Source: an uncultured Nitrospina sp.
GTDB taxonomy: Bacteria; Nitrospinota; Nitrospinia; Nitrospinales; VA-1
NCBI GenBank assembly: GCA_964570185.1
Contig: CAZMXD010000002.1
Span: 1 to 34,022 of the forward strand
Reading direction: 5' to 3'
Length of the DNA: 34,022 nucleotides
Below, piece by piece: positions 11,617-29,789 of the stretch. Made by a program: the position numbers and the translations under genes. The notes under the pieces were generated by a model that worked only from the letters and a program-made list of their open reading frames with translations, did not search any database and was not told the origin of the DNA. Position 1 is the stretch's first letter. Each line of letters opens with the position of its first letter.

Positions 11617-11788
11617 ATAATTCTCAAATCAACTACCCGCGAACGTCTGCAATAATTTTGAAAATAGAACCAGGAAAAAATTATCCTCTTAGCCATTAGA
11701 TTATATCTACGGGACCAATCAGCCTAAAAGAATTTATATTAAAGCTATAAATTTCAATACCTTATGAAATATCCGCGCATTGTTAATT

Positions 11789-11804
11789 TGGCATGAACTT
11801 TGCT
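11789..11804 (+). promoter_or_regulatory. Sigma54 (-24/-12) promoter
   Basis: TGGCATGAACTTTGCT: GG-N10-GC spacing and a close match to TGGCACG-N4-TTGCW; about 50 nt upstream of ATG 11855. Confidence 0.75.
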
Positions 11805-11854
11805 TTATATTGGATTGCCAGCAAATTGCGTCAAAATTCAACCGTGGAGGATTT

Positions 11855-12004
11855 ATGAAAAATTGTACTGTTGATGAGTTTTTAACTCAGATGTTCAGGG
11901 ACACCGCAGAAAAAAGTGGGTGGAATATTTACCGTAAAGGCAGGAAATGGGTTCCGCCTGTTAAAAGGCGAAAATCATCCGCAAAAGTAAAAAGTTTCAA
12001 TTGA
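11855..12004 (+). CDS. Small 49-aa basic hypothetical protein
   Basis: GGAGG RBS at 11846-11850; MKNCTVDEFLTQMFRDTAEKSGWNIYRKGRKWVPPVKRRKSSAKVKSFN. Confidence 0.65.
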   Translation: MKNCTVDEFLTQMFRDTAEKSGWNIYRKGRKWVPPVKRRKSSAKVKSFN

Positions 12005-12020
12005 ATTTTGAGGAATTAAT

Positions 12021-12269
12021 ATGAACGAAAGAACAACGGTTGCTAAATTAGAAGACTTAGGTATTCAGCCAGAAACAATTGAGCAAGAAACCTGGCTGGA
12101 TTGTATTGCTGAAGGGATTGATGAACTACCCGTACAAAAACGTTTGATTATTTCATTGTATTACTATGAAGGCTTAACGATAAAAGAAATTGCCCTTGTT
12201 CTTGAAATGCCAGAGTCCGAGGTTTCCAAAATCCATTACAACACCGTTTTAGAACTTTTAAAAAGATAA
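12021..12269 (+). CDS. Stand-alone sigma-70 region 4 domain protein, FliA/sigma28-like
   Basis: IAEGIDELP..KRLIISLYYYEGLTIKEIALVLEMPESEVSKIH aligns with the FliA/SigD C-terminus; own GAGGA RBS; no sigma region 2. Confidence 0.85.
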   Translation: MNERTTVAKLEDLGIQPETIEQETWLDCIAEGIDELPVQKRLIISLYYYEGLTIKEIALVLEMPESEVSKIHYNTVLELLKR

Positions 12270-12521: not shown

Positions 12522-13403
12522 ATGAGAGAAACAAACGAAAAACCCTGGGCCGGAATAGGTGTTGCGGTGAATAGAAGTTTATCTAGCCGCGAAATGCTTT
12601 ATAAAGCCAAGTTAGACTGGGAAGTCTCCAAAATTCCATCACAAAGGCCCAAATCGCACTCGAATCAGGAGACCTTTCGTTTTTATAAAGCATATTTTGA
12701 TGCCGGAAATGCGGAGATCGAAACGGTTGGCAGTTTGGATGGCGCTCGAATTATTTGGGCTCTTGCCAGGTTAAACCAAAATTTTATTCTACCAGGGGAT
12801 GATGAGTTGCAAGGATATATCCTCCTTGCTTCTCGTCATGAGGACAGAGAGAAAATTGAAATACAATTCTTGACCGTTAGATCCGTATGCAACAGTATGC
12901 TGAAGATATCTTCTACGGCAAGACCGACGGTTAAAAACTCCTTTAGGCGAGTATTTAAACCTACCCTTCCTTTTTTGTCTGAGTCCGCATTGGAGTTTGA
13001 CGAGGATATGATTCAAAAAACAAAAGAAACCCATGAGAAAGGCAGGTCCGCAATATCAAAATTCTCCAAAGATGCGCAGAGACTTGTTGATAAAAAAGTA
13101 AACGAAAAAATCGCCGAAGATTATATGGTAGAGGTTTTCGAGCCAGATATTTTAAAAGATGCAGGCGGGGAGGCTAAAGAGAAGGCAAAAGTTCATACGC
13201 GGTCCGCATTGGATGCCTTTGGCTCAGCACCCGGACAGAATTTGGAATCGACGCGAATGACAGCTTGGGGACTACTGACAGCGGTGACTTATACGGCGGA
13301 TGGTATCGGCAAAACCGCGGATTCTAGATTGAGACAGTCTTGGTTTGGGCCTAACGCAAAAATCAAAAAACGAGCATTGGAATTGGCGCTAAAATTAATA
13401 TAA
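12522..13403 (+). CDS. DUF932/DUF945 family protein (phage/plasmid-like, TIGR03299-type)
   Basis: KPWAGIG, A.LDWEV, ETVGSLDGARIIWALA, VRSVCN, TAWGLLTAVT, RL.QSWFG....IK.RA. Confidence 0.8.
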   Translation: MRETNEKPWAGIGVAVNRSLSSREMLYKAKLDWEVSKIPSQRPKSHSNQETFRFYKAYFDAGNAEIETVGSLDGARIIWALARLNQNFILPGDDELQGYILLASRHEDREKIEIQFLTVRSVCNSMLKISSTARPTVKNSFRRVFKPTLPFLSESALEFDEDMIQKTKETHEKGRSAISKFSKDAQRLVDKKVNEKIAEDYMVEVFEPDILKDAGGEAKEKAKVHTRSALDAFGSAPGQNLESTRMTAWGLLTAVTYTADGIGKTADSRLRQSWFGPNAKIKKRALELALKLI

Positions 13404-22203: not shown

Positions 22204-25200
22204 CTAGCTTGATTCCTCTTTTTCTTCATCATCCTCGCTAGATTCTTCTGAAGATTCCTCAGTGGATCCTCCTTCTGATTTTTCTCCAGATCCATCCGCA
22301 TCGGCTGTTTCTTCAGATCCACCCCCTTCAGAACTTTCTCCAGAACCGCCCTCTCCAGATTTTCCTCCGGGTCCGCCTCCTTCAGATTTTCCTCCTGAAC
22401 CGCCACCCGATTTCGCGCTTGTTGAACCGCCGGCCGGTTTTGCGCTGGGAGCCCTAACCGGCTGCGCACTTGATGAACCACCCGGTTTTACACTTGGACT
22501 TACTGCAGGTGCCGCCGCTGGAGCGGCCTTACTTGAAATTCCGATCAGGGGCGCGGACTGGCTTGGAATAGCTGCGGATCGAGCCCCAGGTAAAGCTACG
22601 CCGCCGCCTGGCCGAGCTCCGGAGAACCCTTGGCTGGCAGTCGGCGGGGGCGCCATAGGCAGCGCAACCAGCACCGTCATCTGCTTGAGCAGTTTTTCTC
22701 TCATGACAATGATTTTATCCTTAGGTAAATTACTGGTGCCCAGGACGGTTACCTTGCCAAGCGTCGTTACTTTACCTACCTTAGCGTTTGCTCTTAAATT
22801 ACCGCCAATAAAACTACCTCTTGTTAATTTTAAATTGCGATCATTTAAAATAGTTGCATGACCCCTTCCATGGGTAGTAAGTCGAACATTTCCGTCAACT
22901 GCCAGTGTATTCAGGTTGATCATACCGCTGTTGGCATCGGTTTTTACGGAAAGATTACCGCCAACAGTTACCTTGCCGCTATCCCAAATTCCCAGTTTAT
23001 TTCCGCTTGTTAACGTCATGTTGCCGCCCACTGATGATGTCCCAATGTTAAGAGCGCTCGTTCCATTATCTAGCGTGGCATGGCCCGTTCTTCCGGTTGT
23101 GTTCAAACTAACTGCGCCAATGAATGACTTGGTCGTGTTGTTGATAATAATATCAGCGTTTTTGGCAATCGTTGTCAGACTCGAAGTTCCCCCGATAGAA
23201 AGCGGGGCACTATCCGTGATGTTTCCCGTGGTGGCGGTTGCGGAAAGATTTCCGCCAACCGTAGATGTTGCCAACTCTAATCCCGCATCATTTACAACGG
23301 TCGCATTACCGCTTCCGTTTGTCGTAAGGGCCACCGTCCCATCAACCGCCAGCGTACCCAGATTGATCACACCGTTGTTCGCATCCGTCGTTGCAGCAAG
23401 ATTTCCACCCACGGTCACTGTACCGCTATCCGTAATACCTGCCGCTGCTCCACTCGTTACGGCCAGACTGCCTCCCACATTTGAAGCGGCAAGGTCTAAA
23501 TTAGCCGTCCCATTATCAAGCGTCGCGTTACCTGAACCATTTGTATTCAAGGCAACGGTTCCCGTGACCGTCGTCGTACCCAGATTGATCACACCATTGT
23601 TCGCATCCGTAGTTGCAGCAAGATTTCCACCCACGGTCACTGTACCGCTATCCGTAATACCTGCCGCTGCTCCACTCGTTACAGTCAGGTTACCTCCCAC
23701 ATTTGAAGCGGCAAGGTCTAAATTAGCAGTGCCATTATCAAGCGTTGCGTTACCCGAACCATTCGTATTCAATGCAACCGTTCCCGTTACTGTAGTCGTA
23801 CCCAGATTGATCACACCGTTGTTCGCATCCGTCGTTGCAGCAAGATTTCCACCCACGGTCACTGTACCGCTATCCGTAATACCTGCCGCTGCTCCACTCG
23901 TTACAGTCAGACTGCCTCCCACATTTGAAGCGGCCATATTAAGAGCGGTCGTTCCATTATCAAGGGTCGCATGACCCGTCAACCCGGTTGTATTCAAACT
24001 AACCGCACCAGTGAGTGCGTTGGTCGTGCTATCGATAGCAATATCTGCGTTAGTGACACTCGTTGTAAAAGAGGAAGTACCGGAAATGGTTAATACCCCG
24101 TTATCTACAATATCTCTACTAACCTTGCCATAGGTGCCTCCACTGTTGGTGGCAACCAGGCTGCCTGCCGTAATATTGCTTAAAGTAATGTCACCACTTG
24201 TTCGATTTGTTTTTCCCGTGCCTGGCTTAATCTCTGAAGTAAATGCACCCGTGCCGGTGTTCATCGTCGTACCCGATGCTAATGTGATTACCGCCGCGCC
24301 CGAGTCGCGTTGAGCATCAACAACACCATTACTGCCGTCGGCATTATTGGTATTATCATTTGCTATTAACGAAAGATCACCATTGTCTGTCGTAATATTT
24401 GCGTTGACGAGGACAGAACGGCCGGCCTGCAAGGTTAAGTCACCGCCATCACCGCCGGAGTTGCTTGCGGTTATGGCTTCCGAGACCGTGATGTCGTTGT
24501 TGGCTTGCATAACAACATTGGTTCCGGCAGACAACAACGTGGTGACCGTGTCAGGAGTGATTGTGGAATTGCTTGAAGAGTTTGTTGCGAAGACAGCCGA
24601 ACTGACCGCATCCCCGGCCGGAGCAGCGGTGTAAAGGTAGACTTCGCCTGAATTACTCCTGCTATTGCTATTGCCATCGCCACGACTTGCACCGACCGCT
24701 AAACGATTATCATCCAAAGAGACATTCCACCCAAAGTAATCACTGGCATCTAAGGAGGATTGGTTTACATTTTTTCCGCCGGTAAAACCACCACCGATTA
24801 TTGCATCAAGCTCACCCCCGCTGAACACGCTGTCTGTAAATGTAAAGACAAAAGCTTGACCTGAACCCCCTTTATCGTGTTCGCCTTCGCAGTGAAAGCA
24901 GCCAGTAACCAACGTATTTCCATCCAGTGAGACTCCGACTCCATTATTGGGATATGTGTTAGAAAATTGACCGGTAAGGCTTATATTCTTACCGCCCGTG
25001 TAACCAACCCCGATCATCCCGGCAAGAGTGGGATTACTGAATGCGCTGTCTGAAAAGGTGAAAAGATAAATATCGCCGGAATTAGCGTAGCTATTGTTGT
25101 GGCCGTTAGCCCATCTTGCTCCTACCACTAACCGGTTCCCGTCCAGCGAAACCGAGGAGAAGACATCGCTGCCATCAAGGTCCTGGTTAAAATTTTTCCC

Positions 25201-27630
25201 GCCGGTATAACCCTCACCAATGGTGGCGGCAAGTTCACCCCCGCTGAATACGCTGTCCGTGAAAGTGTAAAGACGGACTTCGCCAGAGCTACTTTGCCGA
25301 TTGTCCAAACCATCACCATAGTAGGCACCTACCGCTAAACGGGTTCCATCCAATGAAACAGAATAACCAAAGCGATCATCTGTGTCTAATGTCTGATTAA
25401 TATTCTTACCGCCGGTGTAGCCGTGCCCGATCATCCCGGCAAGAGAACCGCCGCTAAATGCGTTGTCACTGAAGGTATAGAGATAAACCTCTCCTGAATT
25501 CGATCGACTGTTGTTCGATCCGTCACCTGTCCATGCCCCTACGACGAGTCGATTTCCGTCTAAAGACACTCCGGTACCAAAATAATCTGAATTACCCAGG
25601 CTTTGGTTTATATTTTTACCGCCAGTGTAGCCGTCACCAATCATAGCCTCAAGCGTTGCCCCGCTAAAGGATGAATCCGTAAAAGAGTAAAGATAGACTT
25701 CGCCTGAGTTAGACCTGCCATTGTTGTTACCGTCACCAGCATAAGACCAGCCAGCTGAACCTACCGCTAAACGGTTTCCGTCTAATGAAACAGCTGCACC
25801 AAAACCATCGCTAGTATCTAGGCCCTGGTTAAAGTTCTTACCACCGCTGTAACCATGTCCCATCATTGCGGCCAGGCTGAAGGCCCCTGTTCCAACCCCT
25901 GAGGAAGTGATAGTGATATTTTTTGGATCAAGAAGCAGCTGTCCGCGTCGGTCATCGATACCGGTAAGAACTTTCGCCCCGAAGGTCAATGTGTCGGCTG
26001 AAGAAACCTCTACGAAACCGCCCGCACCTGTTTGAGTTCCCGGCTTAACATCCAATTGGCCAAATACTGCTGCCTGCTCATCAGCCCAGACAATGACGCG
26101 CCCGCCCGAACCATCAGTGCCCGTGGTTTTTGCCGCAACTTGGGAGGCATCCGTCATGAGAAGCGTTTGCGCGTTTTTAATTTCATCCACGGAAAGGTTT
26201 TTGCCGCCTTGATATTCACCACCTAAACGGATCGTGCCGCCTCCCTTTGTTCCGGAGGCATCGATGGTGTTGGATAAAAACTTGAGTGCGGATGCCGTAA
26301 CATCAATACTTCCGCCCTTGCCGTCGGTACCTAGAGCAAAATATTTTCCGGATGTTTGAATTTCCTGCCGGGTAAAATGTTTAATCGAGCCTCCTGTTGC
26401 TCCTGTAACATCAAGCAATGCGTCCACATTTTCCCATGACCTTGAAAGGGTTTTGATATCGATGCTGCCGCCTTGGCCCGTGGTGCCCTGGGCCAGAATA
26501 GGTGCCGCAATGGAAAGGCCACCTGCTGTCAATTTAATATTGCCCCCGCTATCGCCGCTCACATCCATTTGTCCGCCTATGCTGAGCCAGTTGGCACCAA
26601 CGATGGTGATGTCACCGCCTTTCGCGCCTTTGCCCCTGGCTTGAATCAGCCCCTTATCGATGGTGACACTTGCACCCTGTACAAAAATTTCACCACCCGA
26701 ATCTCCCGAATTTTCTCCGGAAGCGTTTAATTTGCCCGCGATATTTACTTTCCCTTCATCTCCTCCACCGAGAAAAATTCGCCCATCTTTTTTGACAACC
26801 GTGTTCGCTTCTATCATCCCCTCCATATTGATGACATTTCTTATAATTTCGCTGGCGTTTCTAGCAGTCAGTATGGCCTGTCCCCCCTTCGCCTGGATGG
26901 AACCCGAGTTTGAGATCTGGTCGTTGATCAGGTTGCCGTCCTTGTCCAGAACCTGTCCCTGTACCGGTCTGTCGACGGTAAAAGCAATGAGCTCGTTTCC
27001 GATAAAATCGACGGTTACGGCTTCACCTGATGCGATACCCACCGTGCCCAGGTTTGCCACAACCACTCCCTTGTTATTGACCGATGGAGCAATCAAGGCA
27101 GCGAATTCGGAGGCATGGATCTTGCCCTCGTTTAATATCGCTGCCAACGGCCTGCTGGGATCCGAGGAGAATTTGTAGAGGCCATCTATAAAGTCCTGTT
27201 CAGATATTTTAAGGGTGCTTGCGATCAGGCTGGCCACGTTAATATTGGCAGTCGGCGAGATGTAGATACCGTTAGGATTACTTAAAACGATCTGGCCGTT
27301 TGCCGCAAGATTGCCTTCGACCACCGTTCGGCTGTTACCAAGAATATTGTTAAGAGCGGAGGAGTTGGAACCCGGCTGCAGGAAGATAACCGACTCATTG
27401 TTTCCTACACTAAAACTTTCCCAATTGATAACAATCTTGTCTGAGGTTTGAGTAACCGTCAGAGAGGGACCGGAACTTTCAATGGAACCCGCACCAGAGG
27501 AGATCACTCCGCCTTTAGGCAAGGCATACCCCAAGGTTGGAAACCCGCCAATCAGATAAACCAAAAAACCGATCAGGAAACGGGTTATTTTGTGCCTACG
27601 TCTGAGATCATAATCCAGCACACGAAACAT
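22204..27630 (-). CDS. TpsA / filamentous haemagglutinin family exoprotein with FG-GAP repeats
   Basis: Signal peptide ending GYA-LP; TPS motifs INWESFSV and NPNGI; Gly/Ser/Thr beta-helix; six FG-GAP repeats; adjacent tpsB. Confidence 0.93.
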   Translation of the reverse strand: MFRVLDYDLRRRHKITRFLIGFLVYLIGGFPTLGYALPKGGVISSGAGSIESSGPSLTVTQTSDKIVINWESFSVGNNESVIFLQPGSNSSALNNILGNSRTVVEGNLAANGQIVLSNPNGIYISPTANINVASLIASTLKISEQDFIDGLYKFSSDPSRPLAAILNEGKIHASEFAALIAPSVNNKGVVVANLGTVGIASGEAVTVDFIGNELIAFTVDRPVQGQVLDKDGNLINDQISNSGSIQAKGGQAILTARNASEIIRNVINMEGMIEANTVVKKDGRIFLGGGDEGKVNIAGKLNASGENSGDSGGEIFVQGASVTIDKGLIQARGKGAKGGDITIVGANWLSIGGQMDVSGDSGGNIKLTAGGLSIAAPILAQGTTGQGGSIDIKTLSRSWENVDALLDVTGATGGSIKHFTRQEIQTSGKYFALGTDGKGGSIDVTASALKFLSNTIDASGTKGGGTIRLGGEYQGGKNLSVDEIKNAQTLLMTDASQVAAKTTGTDGSGGRVIVWADEQAAVFGQLDVKPGTQTGAGGFVEVSSADTLTFGAKVLTGIDDRRGQLLLDPKNITITSSGVGTGAFSLAAMMGHGYSGGKNFNQGLDTSDGFGAAVSLDGNRLAVGSAGWSYAGDGNNNGRSNSGEVYLYSFTDSSFSGATLEAMIGDGYTGGKNINQSLGNSDYFGTGVSLDGNRLVVGAWTGDGSNNSRSNSGEVYLYTFSDNAFSGGSLAGMIGHGYTGGKNINQTLDTDDRFGYSVSLDGTRLAVGAYYGDGLDNRQSSSGEVRLYTFTDSVFSGGELAATIGEGYTGGKNFNQDLDGSDVFSSVSLDGNRLVVGARWANGHNNSYANSGDIYLFTFSDSAFSNPTLAGMIGVGYTGGKNISLTGQFSNTYPNNGVGVSLDGNTLVTGCFHCEGEHDKGGSGQAFVFTFTDSVFSGGELDAIIGGGFTGGKNVNQSSLDASDYFGWNVSLDDNRLAVGASRGDGNSNSRSNSGEVYLYTAAPAGDAVSSAVFATNSSSNSTITPDTVTTLLSAGTNVVMQANNDITVSEAITASNSGGDGGDLTLQAGRSVLVNANITTDNGDLSLIANDNTNNADGSNGVVDAQRDSGAAVITLASGTTMNTGTGAFTSEIKPGTGKTNRTSGDITLSNITAGSLVATNSGGTYGKVSRDIVDNGVLTISGTSSFTTSVTNADIAIDSTTNALTGAVSLNTTGLTGHATLDNGTTALNMAASNVGGSLTVTSGAAAGITDSGTVTVGGNLAATTDANNGVINLGTTTVTGTVALNTNGSGNATLDNGTANLDLAASNVGGNLTVTSGAAAGITDSGTVTVGGNLAATTDANNGVINLGTTTVTGTVALNTNGSGNATLDNGTANLDLAASNVGGSLAVTSGAAAGITDSGTVTVGGNLAATTDANNGVINLGTLAVDGTVALTTNGSGNATVVNDAGLELATSTVGGNLSATATTGNITDSAPLSIGGTSSLTTIAKNADIIINNTTKSFIGAVSLNTTGRTGHATLDNGTSALNIGTSSVGGNMTLTSGNKLGIWDSGKVTVGGNLSVKTDANSGMINLNTLAVDGNVRLTTHGRGHATILNDRNLKLTRGSFIGGNLRANAKVGKVTTLGKVTVLGTSNLPKDKIIVMREKLLKQMTVLVALPMAPPPTASQGFSGARPGGGVALPGARSAAIPSQSAPLIGISSKAAPAAAPAVSPSVKPGGSSSAQPVRAPSAKPAGGSTSAKSGGGSGGKSEGGGPGGKSGEGGSGESSEGGGSEETADADGSGEKSEGGSTEESSEESSEDDEEKEESS
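23305..23970 (-). repeat. Three near-identical 222-bp (74-aa) tandem repeats in tpsA; a diverged fourth copy at 22858-23079
   Basis: cagattgatcacacc recurs at 23359, 23581 and 23803. Confidence 0.93.
24630..25870 (-). repeat. Six ~70-aa FG-GAP (integrin-alpha-like) repeats in tpsA
   Basis: D.FG..VSLDGNRL.VGA...DG.NN.RSNSGEVYLYTF....GYTGGKN.NQ repeated six times. Confidence 0.88.
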
Positions 27631-28040
27631 GTTGAATATCCAAGGTGAAAAGATTTAAAAATCTTCTTCCACAAGGTCCCAACGGCAAATACTAAATACG
27701 ATTTAAAATAAAATATTTAGACGGGAAAGATTCATAAAATACACGGACCTCCACCCTATAGTATAGTATAGTTTTGGTGAGTTATTTTGGCCAATCCGGA
27801 AAAACTCTCGAAGAAGGAATATAATACTTCTATATTTTTAAAGCCCGCACTAGATAACTTGTTGATAACGTTATGCCTTCATTGTCGCAAGATATTTCTG
27901 CCGTAACCATGGAAAAACGGAAATAATTGGATCTTTTTAAAACGATGGGTGTGAATCGGTGGTTTCCCGCTAAAAAGGAAAATTTAGATGAAGCGAGGCG
28001 TTAAGGGTTAACCAGAGAGATTTTTACAATACCTTGATTT

Positions 28041-29789
28041 TCAATAATTGATCATACCGTTTAGATAAATAGTTCCGTGGGAGCCATCGTCAGGCGCAAT
28101 ACTATTAAACACGGGTATGCCGTAAGTGAGCGCAAAACTGGCAGTGGGGCTGTTCTCATCTTTTTTCGGAACGTTAATTTTTATACCAGCCCCTGCCCCT
28201 GTGATGGCTTGGTCACCCTCTCCCGACTGTTTTTCACGGACAAAAACATGACCGTGATCCAGAAAGGAAATGAAGGAAACTATTTGACTAAGTTTTGGAA
28301 GGTCATTGTGCCATTTAATATCCCATGGAAACGGAACGTTATATTCTGCCGAAACATTAAACCCCATATCACCAGAGAAGGCAGACAGGGGATAGCCGCG
28401 AACCGTTCCCACCCCGCCGACTATGAACAGAAAAGGAGCAAGTGCTCGGTCATTGTTAACCTGCCCTTTAAATTTTAATATAAAGTAGCTGTTTAGGATT
28501 TTGGCGGATTGAAGTCGGGTTAGGTCGATATTGGCGGATAAAATTTCCCCGTGTCCTCCTGCTCTTGAAGCCAGAGCCCGGTTGGCATCTCCTTCACGCA
28601 GCCCCATCTGCAATTTTAAGTCGTAAAAGGTTCTGCCAAGATAAGAATCAGAAAAATTGCCTCCCAATCCTAAAGATATATTGGTCAAATTGTCCTTGCT
28701 GGTATTGGCTCCTTCCGATTCATTTTCGGCACTTTTAAAATCCAGTCCTGTTCTTGCCGAAAAACTAGCGGTCAGGCTTTTATAAAATAAATGGGAAACT
28801 TCCAGCCCAACAGTGGTTGAAGTTCCTCCGGCTGCCAGACTTTTAAGAGAGTCACCCAGTTCATTTTCCGTAAAGGTATAAGCCACTTTCATACGTGTCC
28901 CATATGAATTGATGGGAAAAGTATAAAAGGGACTATAGGCATCCTGTAGACTTGTACGCGTCCATCGGGCCGAAAACTGATCTCCCAAAGTGAAAATATT
29001 AGCGTAGGTCATATTAAATCCGGAACGAAAAGCTCCTGTAAAACGCGAGCCAAAGTTATCAGAATCAAAAGATACGTTATAGGGTCTTAACTCCGTAACA
29101 TCCATAACCAAATCCGAGGTTCCGGGCAAGTCTCCGGGTTTCAATACTGCCCTGACTTTTACTCCCATAAGTTCGTTTAATTCAAGGAGTACCCGTTCTA
29201 AGGTTTGCTCTCTTAAAACCTTTTCTTCCTGAACCATCTTCATTCTTTGTTTAAACTTTTCTTCGCTTAGCTTTTTGTTTCCCTGAACGATGACTTTGTT
29301 GACCCTGCCCTCGGTTATAACCATTTCCACGATACCGTCTTTAACTTCTTGTTTAGGAATAAACGCGGTTGCCAAAAGGTACCCTTCACTAGCGTAAAAA
29401 GCGGAAACCTTATCGGCCATGATGGTTAGGGTGCCCAGGTTGATCTCTTTGCCTTCCCCCAAATCAACCAAGGGCATCAATATTTCATCACTAAAAATCG
29501 TGTTGCCGGTAAGCTTTATCTTCTTTACGAAAATTAAAGGCCCGGCATTGGGGTCCTTTCGAGTTTTGCGTGTCTTGCTGCTTTCGATGTACATTCCAGG
29601 GTCAGGTACTGGTTTAAACGGGCGAGATTGCTCAAGTGATTTTTCTATTATTCCGGACTGGCCTTCAAGGGGAACCTTTGTTTGAGCTAGCATCACCTCG
29701 GGTACTAAAACGCAACCGAGCGCAAGAAGAGGGCAGTAGATCAGAAAAACAAATTGTTTGTGTATGATGTGTCTCATCAAGTAATTCAT
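28041..29789 (-). CDS. TpsB / ShlB-FhaC-HecB family outer-membrane secretion protein
   Basis: Signal peptide; POTRA motif Y.SEGYLLATAFIPKQE...G.V...ITEG; DNFGSRFTG; VRGY loop motif; C-terminal aromatic residue. Confidence 0.93.
   Translation of the reverse strand: MNYLMRHIIHKQFVFLIYCPLLALGCVLVPEVMLAQTKVPLEGQSGIIEKSLEQSRPFKPVPDPGMYIESSKTRKTRKDPNAGPLIFVKKIKLTGNTIFSDEILMPLVDLGEGKEINLGTLTIMADKVSAFYASEGYLLATAFIPKQEVKDGIVEMVITEGRVNKVIVQGNKKLSEEKFKQRMKMVQEEKVLREQTLERVLLELNELMGVKVRAVLKPGDLPGTSDLVMDVTELRPYNVSFDSDNFGSRFTGAFRSGFNMTYANIFTLGDQFSARWTRTSLQDAYSPFYTFPINSYGTRMKVAYTFTENELGDSLKSLAAGGTSTTVGLEVSHLFYKSLTASFSARTGLDFKSAENESEGANTSKDNLTNISLGLGGNFSDSYLGRTFYDLKLQMGLREGDANRALASRAGGHGEILSANIDLTRLQSAKILNSYFILKFKGQVNNDRALAPFLFIVGGVGTVRGYPLSAFSGDMGFNVSAEYNVPFPWDIKWHNDLPKLSQIVSFISFLDHGHVFVREKQSGEGDQAITGAGAGIKINVPKKDENSPTASFALTYGIPVFNSIAPDDGSHGTIYLNGMINY

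Follow-up and report, generated by a model that had tools for sequence, protein, structure and literature searches.

A conserved two-gene module of Nitrospinaceae encoding a stand-alone sigma-28 region 4 and a basic peptide: a candidate accessory regulator of the flagellar sigma-28 circuit

A sigma-28 region 4 encoded together with a basic peptide

The DNA analysed here (hereafter the window) is a stretch of 34,022 nucleotides (nt) from an uncultured Nitrospina sp., namely contig C2 (CAZMXD010000002.1, forward strand) of a 2.26-Mb Nitrospinaceae metagenome-assembled genome (GCA_964570185.1) that is 86% complete. It carries a two-gene module in which a -24/-12 promoter of the sigma-54 type and a conserved leader precede a gene for a basic peptide of 49 amino acids (aa) and a gene for an acidic protein of 82 aa, named hereafter mini-sigma4, which corresponds to only the region 3.2 tail and region 4 of a sigma-28 factor (Table 1). 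A first-pass annotation made from the sequence alone had described this arrangement, except for the conserved leader, with a ribosome-binding motif in front of each gene, and had read mini-sigma4 as a DNA-blind mimic of sigma-28 that titrates FlgM or competes for core RNA polymerase. The arrangement itself was confirmed in all its elements and positions, as were the isoelectric points (pI) and the domain content of the products, and our best reading of the sequence data is that the module serves the flagellar sigma-28 (FliA) circuit as an accessory regulator confined to two genera of Nitrospinaceae.

The peptide ATG lies 66 nt 3' of the start of the promoter match, and the mini-sigma4 gene starts 16 nt past the peptide stop codon, being preceded by GAGGAA or by GTAAGGAA/GTGAGGAA in the listed loci of the window's genus. 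In a marine RNA library, one contig of 187 nt spans positions 11928-12114 and bridges both open reading frames (ORFs), which is compatible with their co-transcription but no proof of it; DNA carry-over in the library is possible. In a second RNA run the operon matched over just 37 nt, at less than 90% identity.

In Pfam, mini-sigma4 matched only Sigma70_r4 (38.8 bits, cut-off 24.1) and Sigma70_r4_2, and the best NCBIfam model was FliA_WhiG (TIGR02479), of which positions 156-219 out of 224 were covered with 56 bits against a cut-off of 189.6. Sigma region 4 is thus the sole domain of the protein, with neither a region 2 nor a receiver domain, and its helix-turn-helix (HTH) fold is supported by Pfam, by the AF2 model and by comparison with the PDB. 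The model shows a four-helix sigma-4 bundle at residues 22-81, with a confidence (pLDDT) above 90 over residues 31-80, and the nearest PDB chains are the region 4 folds of SigD, WhiG, FliA, SigE and extracytoplasmic function (ECF) sigma factors, with E 9e-13 for the match to 9WSF. No remnant of region 2 is present upstream either, as had been claimed from the sequence: the ORF found there is the conserved peptide, which is unrelated to FliA (hhalign probability 0.4%, not significant).

Derivation of mini-sigma4 from FliA is borne out by its alignment to residues 151-241 of Nitrospina FliA, with 46% identity and one 21-aa gap (E 5e-21). Moreover, its N-terminus (LEDLGI..E..WLDC.AEG) matches the motif LGIAKESGEQQSLLDCLAGKGD of the linker between regions 3 and 4 (LEDLGI...LDC.A), a motif that is common to the Nitrospinota FliAs compared and was not shown by the FliAs compared from other phyla. 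This linker-like N-terminus is the least conserved part of the protein and is modelled with low confidence (pLDDT 43-50). In a phylogenetic tree the 28 mini-sigma4 rows formed one clade (SH-aLRT 96) with long stems; two rows of the tree were wrong-strand ORFs. The trees had few columns and long branches, and placing the origin of the clade among the FliAs by them was given up. Taken together, the sequence comparisons suggest that the 3' part of fliA was duplicated within the Nitrospinaceae and that this copy then diverged fast to become mini-sigma4.

The basic peptide has homologs in 44 clusters of the database searched, all hypothetical, and the few named ones belong to Nitrospinae or to an unclassified bacterium. 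Its AF2 model consists of one helix at residues 6-21 (pLDDT 82-87), which is amphipathic (muH 1.36), and of a disordered Lys/Arg-rich tail of net charge +10. Searches returned no match in Pfam (E up to 1), NCBIfam or PHROG and no usable match in the ESM Atlas. Comparison with the two FlgM paralogs of the genome gave hhalign probabilities of 0.3% and 0.6%, that is, the peptide does not represent the C-terminal sigma-28-binding domain of FlgM (PF04316). Two local resemblances, at residues 18-27 and 31-41, are statistically insignificant and probably due to chance, namely that of AEKSGWNIYR to the FlgM motif AIEKGYNVDS and, in the window's genus only, that of KWVPPVKRRK to the FliA motif DWVPRSVRQK. 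Prediction of a complex between mini-sigma4 and the peptide scored 0.06 and 0.07, against a mark of 0.32, and speaks neither for binding nor against it. The peptide may be a partner of mini-sigma4 or a nucleic-acid binder.

Table 1. Features of the module and side features of the window, in window coordinates
Feature	Position	Strand	Basis and remarks
Short block GGAAAAA..T, about 115 nt 5' of the promoter	11673..11682	+	Alignment of 8 loci of the window's genus; weak
-24/-12 (sigma-54-type) promoter, TGGCAT-N5-TTGCT, TGGCATgaactTTGCT	11789..11804	+	Pattern match and conservation; GG at 11790-11791, GC at 11802-11803
Conserved leader GCGTCAAAATTCAACCGTGGAGG, including the Shine-Dalgarno motif of the peptide gene	11828..11850	+	Alignment of 8 loci
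Gene for the 49-aa basic peptide	11855..12004	+	ORF, pI 10.5; GGAGG at 11846-11850, ATG at 11855
Shine-Dalgarno motif GAGGA of the second gene, 6 nt 5' of its ATG	12010..12014	+	Sequence
Mini-sigma4 gene (82-aa acidic stand-alone sigma-28 region 3.2 tail and region 4)	12021..12269	+	ORF, pI 4.5, ATG at 12021; Pfam and NCBIfam
DUF932/TIGR03299 "phage/plasmid-like" gene	12522..13403		Side observation
Two-partner secretion pair	22204..29789	-	Side observation

Promoter, leader and distribution of the module

The promoter match, TGGCATgaactTTGCT, has the -24 GG and -12 GC elements at canonical spacing (TGGCAC-N5-TTGCW) and is the sole match to TGGCAYN5TTGCH in the window, where 0.11 matches are expected from shuffled sequences; 10 of 100 shuffles contained at least one. 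A single match is weak when taken alone, but the pattern recurs in 25 of 25 module-bearing loci from two genera, so that the match can be regarded as more than chance, in line with the near-consensus promoter of the first-pass annotation. These 25 loci comprise the window, 10 orthologous loci, 13 loci of the second genus and the locus of genome G060. In the last of these (L105, G060:C71:12132-12514) the mini-sigma4 sequence breaks off after WKADIA into unrelated sequence, which is either an assembly chimera or a real disruption. The distance from promoter to ATG was 64-67 nt in all 22 sequences that could be measured (out of a set of 25, one of them a duplicate contig), and no sigma-70-like site outscored shuffles. 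The genome encodes RpoN (432 bits) and enhancer-binding activators (four strong Sigma54_activat matches). On these grounds the promoter is probably used by sigma-54. Further upstream, the GGAAAAA..T block provides the only invariant columns 5' of the promoter in the alignment of eight loci from the window's genus, and may be an activator site, an integration host factor (IHF) site or meaningless.

All 8 loci aligned from the window's genus have an identical leader between the promoter and the peptide gene, and a core, GTCAAAATTCA(A/G)AC, is common to both genera. Within it the motif GCGTCAAAATTCA (positions 11828-11840; the same motif is found in L091-L103), just 5' of the ribosome-binding site of the peptide gene, is unchanged across the two genera, in which the proteins are only 35-49% identical, and is better conserved than the promoter spacer. 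An Rfam search of the leader gave no match. Positions 11829-11840 are complementary, at 11 of 12 bases, to intergenic positions 12002-12013, which overlap the ribosome-binding site of the second gene, and this hinted at translational coupling. Such a long-range pairing was rejected as a conserved structure, since the intergenic arm varies without compensation and the second genus has no complementarity. Control of the leader by CsrA was likewise rejected, no CsrA having been found in the 86%-complete genome.

A database search identified 233 mini-sigma4 homologs, with lengths of 73-88 aa among the 120 listed, and those that are named come from Nitrospina or Nitrospinota. In species-representative genomes there are 10 orthologous loci with promoter, peptide gene and mini-sigma4 gene in the same order as in the window; one of them (L009) is partly masked and another (L010) has a 48-aa variant of the peptide. 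Among 120 Nitrospinota genomes, those with short open frames belonged to three genera. They made up 14 of the 17 genomes from the window's genus (the other three being 59-76% complete) and, at an identity of 35-49%, 13 of the 23 from a second genus; a third genus contributed a single genome, whose 2.6-kb contig is identical to L015 and is probably a binning artefact. All other genera in this set have only the FliA frame of approximately 253 aa. A scan of metagenomes for the contexts of three divergent clusters (P0166, P0167 and P0169) yielded 80 loci and no new mini-sigma4 locus: 71 frames were at least 224 aa long, the size of full-length FliA, nine were shorter (85-177 aa), and RVSQ is kept in the one short frame that did not run off the end of its locus.

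In the second genus, the 13 loci share this promoter pattern and encode a peptide of 51 aa and a mini-sigma4 of 80 aa, but their flanks differ, with neither the Sel1-repeat gene nor the DUF932 gene. The conserved unit therefore consists of exactly the promoter, the leader and the two genes. The DUF932 gene lies directly 3' of the module, a position kept in the window's genus, and was rejected as a part of the module because it is missing from the module neighbourhood in the second genus. Farther away, the window encodes a two-partner secretion pair, in which a protein of 1808 aa, combining a TPS domain with FG-GAP repeats, is accompanied by a transporter of the ShlB/FhaC type.

Median pairwise ratios of nonsynonymous to synonymous substitution (dN/dS) were 0.107 for the peptide and 0.125 for mini-sigma4 in the window's genus, and 0.170 and 0.161, respectively, in the second genus, indicating from these alignments that both ORFs are under purifying selection. 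Mini-sigma4 is acidic, with a pI of 4.1-5.7, in 19 of 20 loci.

Groove residues, recognition helix and flagellar background

Mini-sigma4 shares its fold and clear homology with the region 4 of FliA/WhiG sigma-28 factors, as found in complex with FlgM (9WSF, 1RP3/1SC5), and the 2026 report on the Pseudomonas sigma-28/FlgM and open complexes (PMC12784957) allowed functional residues to be mapped onto mini-sigma4 by alignment to the structure. The FlgM-contacting residues given there for Pseudomonas sigma-28, L187, I191, L200, A203, L204, Y206, E209 and L210, correspond in this order to I29, I33, L42, S45, L46, Y48, G51 and L52 of mini-sigma4. In each of the two genera, the mini-sigma4 residue is that of Nitrospina FliA at seven of these eight positions, and the residues at the contact positions are hydrophobic or identical. 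Mini-sigma4 keeps the groove that sigma-28 offers to FlgM (PMC12784957).

The DNA-reading surface has fared differently, the base-reading Gln and the neighbouring Arg of FliA/WhiG both being replaced in mini-sigma4. In Pseudomonas sigma-28 the residues reading the -35 element are Ser224 and Gln228, within the motif S-R-V-S-Q, and substitution of Q228 by Ala cuts transcription (PMC12784957). By the same mapping, the equivalent of S224 is S66 in mini-sigma4. Of 120 family members from the window's clade, 119 have Lys or Arg at the equivalent of Q228 (position 70) and 115 have Glu at that of R225 (position 67). The recognition helix thus reads ESEVSKIH, as had been noticed at the outset, compared with ESRVSQIH in the FliA of the same genome. 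In the second genus it reads SKVKKIR (KVKK in most). The full mini-sigma4 profile is covered by six clusters at 50% identity, and in the five that are readable the FliA residues R-V-S-Q are replaced by EVSK, KVKK, HLET, KAEE or KVNE, so that the base-reading Gln is replaced in every readable one. Conversely, R[VI][SC]Q is kept in 65 of the 69 other short hits that were parsed, short region 4 hits (up to 145 aa) outside the family being not distinguishable from gene fragments.

Mini-sigma4 does not carry the -35-reading residues of sigma-28, and the replacement of R-V-S-Q is consistent with a loss of -35 reading. The interpretation given in the first-pass annotation is supported in part, but the "DNA-blind" character that it proposed is doubtful: the base-reading Gln is indeed lost, yet SKVKKIR in the second genus replaces the Arg conservatively by Lys. 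The surface is not shown to be idle, because each clade conserves its own version of the recognition helix.

The partners that such a mimic would need, fliA, flgM and rpoN, are all present in the genome. FliA scores over the cut-off (228 bits, model positions 39-224 of 224) in a 195-aa frame whose 5' end is cut by the contig end. Two FlgM paralogs, both over the cut-off, lie at C42:73-228 and C17:11749-12060, and one comes right after a flagellin-like gene headed by a sigma-28-like motif (TCAAG-N14-GCCGTAA). Two FlgM paralogs are found in most Nitrospinaceae genomes; FlgM copy number was rejected as a correlate of the module, since having two is common whether or not the module is present. Fifteen occurrences of the strict -24/-12 pattern were counted in the genome, compared with about 4 expected by our own calculation from base composition. 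It stands before flgB, beside a divergent gene for a 933-aa GAF-domain sigma-54 activator, and also before the gene of an SLT-domain lytic transglycosylase (C13:13531-17039 and C87:260-1110 for the flgB and SLT sites). The flgB and SLT-domain genes are hence candidate members of a sigma-54 flagellar tier. A relaxed scan of the genome for sigma-28 promoters was discarded as too noisy.

In the second genus, FliA scored over the cut-off in 13 of 23 genomes, and 10 of those 13 have an intact module. The FliA-less genomes of this genus that are closed or 93-98% complete also have no flagellin or a broken one. Of the 10 FliA-less genomes, G064 (90% complete, 370 contigs, FlgM present) has the module and is probably just incomplete. 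One clade (G053, G073, G074, G072 and G075; loci L097, L098 and L106) is losing or has lost flagella, and several stages are visible there. In G053, both FliA and flagellin contain in-frame stops; its module is still intact, the peptide having lost 3 aa by deletion and mini-sigma4 having Cys at two positions that are conserved elsewhere. G074 has no flagellin, and a frameshift in a run of A falls within the recognition helix of its mini-sigma4. A fragment of flagellin is left in G073, and in its module the -12 element is mutated to TTAC, with loss of the GC, and half of the peptide gene and the whole mini-sigma4 gene are deleted. No trace of the module was found in G072 by profile searches, or in G054 and G075 with the protein query; G072 and G075 also lack flagellin. 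This decay of the module alongside flagellar loss is suggestive, not statistical. Despite the flagellar loss, G053, G073 and G074 retain an FlgM-like gene.

Possible roles in the sigma-28 circuit

The specific role that we favour, tentatively and with rather less than even confidence, is that of a sigma-28 domain 4 mimic, produced from a sigma-54 promoter, that competes for FlgM or RNA polymerase. The sigma-54 promoter would drive a bicistronic mRNA encoding the helix-plus-tail basic peptide and a copy of the FliA C-terminus, that is, the end of the 3/4 linker and domain 4. Because it lacks domains 2 and 3, and with them -10 binding and DNA opening, mini-sigma4 cannot act as a sigma factor; it also differs from FliA/WhiG in being encoded apart from fliA, with its own promoter of the sigma-54 type and together with a peptide gene. 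During activity of the sigma-54 tier, the mimic and FliA would vie for FlgM, or with lower probability for core polymerase, and this competition would shift the amount of free, active sigma-28. FlgM would be the likelier target, since a lone domain should be a poor competitor for core. Any binding by mini-sigma4, and the direction of its effect, are what we infer from sequence comparison.

A number of observations weigh against this reading. The groove of sigma-28 that meets FlgM is also presented to the beta-flap tip, and the kept groove residues do not single out FlgM because they belong to the fold core and the beta-flap surface as well. The clade-specific conservation of the recognition helix argues for some function of that surface, and the Lys-rich helix SKVKKIR suits nucleic-acid binding better than a DNA-blind decoy. 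The neighbours of the operon are unrelated housekeeping genes, none of them flagellar, most flagellated Nitrospinota are without the module, and the number of FlgM paralogs does not track it. In G060, a FliA-positive member of the second genus, promoter and peptide gene are accompanied by a mini-sigma4 gene truncated 230 nt from the contig end, and no module was found in the likewise FliA-positive G056 (87% complete) and G062 (92% complete), even by profile searches. In one of the 10 orthologous loci (L013, from a metagenome-assembled genome) the peptide ORF is frameshifted. Finally, the aflagellate genomes are close kin, so that the decay described above amounts to one flagellar loss followed by at least two independent module lesions, rather than to a series of independent trials.

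The surface properties in this list lead to a less probable, though serious, account, in which mini-sigma4 is a small HTH regulator of transcription or RNA that has acquired a new specificity and acts with or without the peptide, for example on its own leader motif GCGTCAAAATTCA (autoregulation) or on flagellar promoters. The helix residues conserved per clade (E67 and K/R70 in the window's clade, KVKK in most of the second genus), the Lys-rich helix of the second genus, the tail of the partner peptide with its high positive charge, and the otherwise unexplained leader motif invariant across two genera would all fit. Stand-alone sigma-4-like HTH structures are known besides: YlxM/UPF0122 proteins (1s7o, 1xsv) are small and consist of a sigma-4-like helical bundle only (TMq 0.62-0.67), but they share only 18% identity with mini-sigma4, are not among the Pfam matches listed for it and have no FliA link. 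YlxM/UPF0122 genes sit next to ffh, unlike the module in its genomic context. Against a regulator of this kind, mini-sigma4 is acidic, a lone sigma-4 domain has little affinity for DNA when it is not part of the holoenzyme, and the helix varies sharply from clade to clade while the leader stays constant, which does not fit co-evolution of a protein and its DNA site.

We consider it rather improbable that the target is core RNA polymerase itself, with mini-sigma4 and its linker stub occupying the beta-flap tip and RNA-exit region and lowering the sigma-28 or general holoenzyme, the sigma-54 holoenzyme being spared as it binds core differently. The hydrophobic groove is kept, as are about 20 residues homologous to the 3/4 linker of FliA, and a sigma-54 promoter would spare the module's own transcription. 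But the linker-like N-terminus is the least conserved and least confidently modelled part of the protein, domain 4 in isolation should have a much lower affinity for core than an entire sigma factor, and a general inhibitor leaves the link to flagellar loss unexplained.

More doubtful still is a self-contained antagonist pair, in which the peptide is a minimal anti-sigma-like helix acting on domain 4 of FliA and mini-sigma4 its decoy or antidote, the ratio of the two setting sigma-28 activity. The two genes always occur together, their products are oppositely charged, and the single confident amphipathic helix of the peptide resembles in general shape the groove-binding helices of FlgM described in PMC12784957. 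However, the peptide has no sequence relation to FlgM (hhalign below 1%), and two FlgM paralogs are already present. Finally, that mini-sigma4 is a functionless, decaying remnant of a duplicated fliA, to which its being a partial FliA copy with an internal 21-aa deletion might point, is extremely improbable and contradicted by the selection data (dN/dS of 0.11-0.17 for both ORFs in two genera), by the conserved length, promoter and leader, by the short form being present in every module-bearing relative, and by the look of true decay in the aflagellate relatives, which brings frameshift and deletion.

A conceptual parallel to a sigma-28 mimic competing for FlgM is the PhyR-NepR-sigma-EcfG system of Alphaproteobacteria, in which a sigma mimic is reported to serve as anti-anti-sigma factor (PMC4551977, PMC4814048). 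Common to both would be a non-transcribing sigma-like domain competing with the real sigma factor for its anti-sigma factor, a role that for mini-sigma4 is proposed from its sequence. PhyR is reported to be an ECF-type mimic of sigma-2 plus sigma-4 fused to a receiver and switched by phosphorylation, whereas mini-sigma4 consists of the domain 4 of a group-3 sigma factor only and has no sensor, so that its control would be transcriptional, by sigma-54, and perhaps by the peptide. An extended version of the mimic reading, which we rate as unlikely, makes the module a minimal partner-switch wiring the sigma-54 tier to the sigma-28 tier: the mimic would sequester FlgM, the co-evolved peptide would gate the groove or bind domain 4 of FliA, and early genes would set a threshold for late genes independent of FlgM export, as a separately arisen counterpart of PhyR.

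The first-pass annotation had known of no description of this arrangement, and in our literature search (full text, with few subscription journals and no supplements) neither an FlgM decoy nor a sigma-28 region 4 standing on its own was found described; the operon form with peptide and leader is apparently new in print. The export of FlgM is the textbook checkpoint that flagellar assembly imposes on sigma-28, and a domain 4 mimic would, if the proposed reading is true, add a second, cytoplasmic input to it. It would also be the second natural case of sigma-factor mimicry after PhyR, here achieved by one domain only and directed at a sigma factor of group 3. With just 49 and 82 residues, the two proteins make the hypothesis cheap to test in vitro. 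Even without a decoy role, the module represents an uncharacterised regulator, in which a protein made of sigma-4 only is conserved along with an invariant leader and a basic peptide as its obligate partner. Its carriers are the main marine nitrite oxidisers, for which the control of motility bears on finding nitrite and particles.

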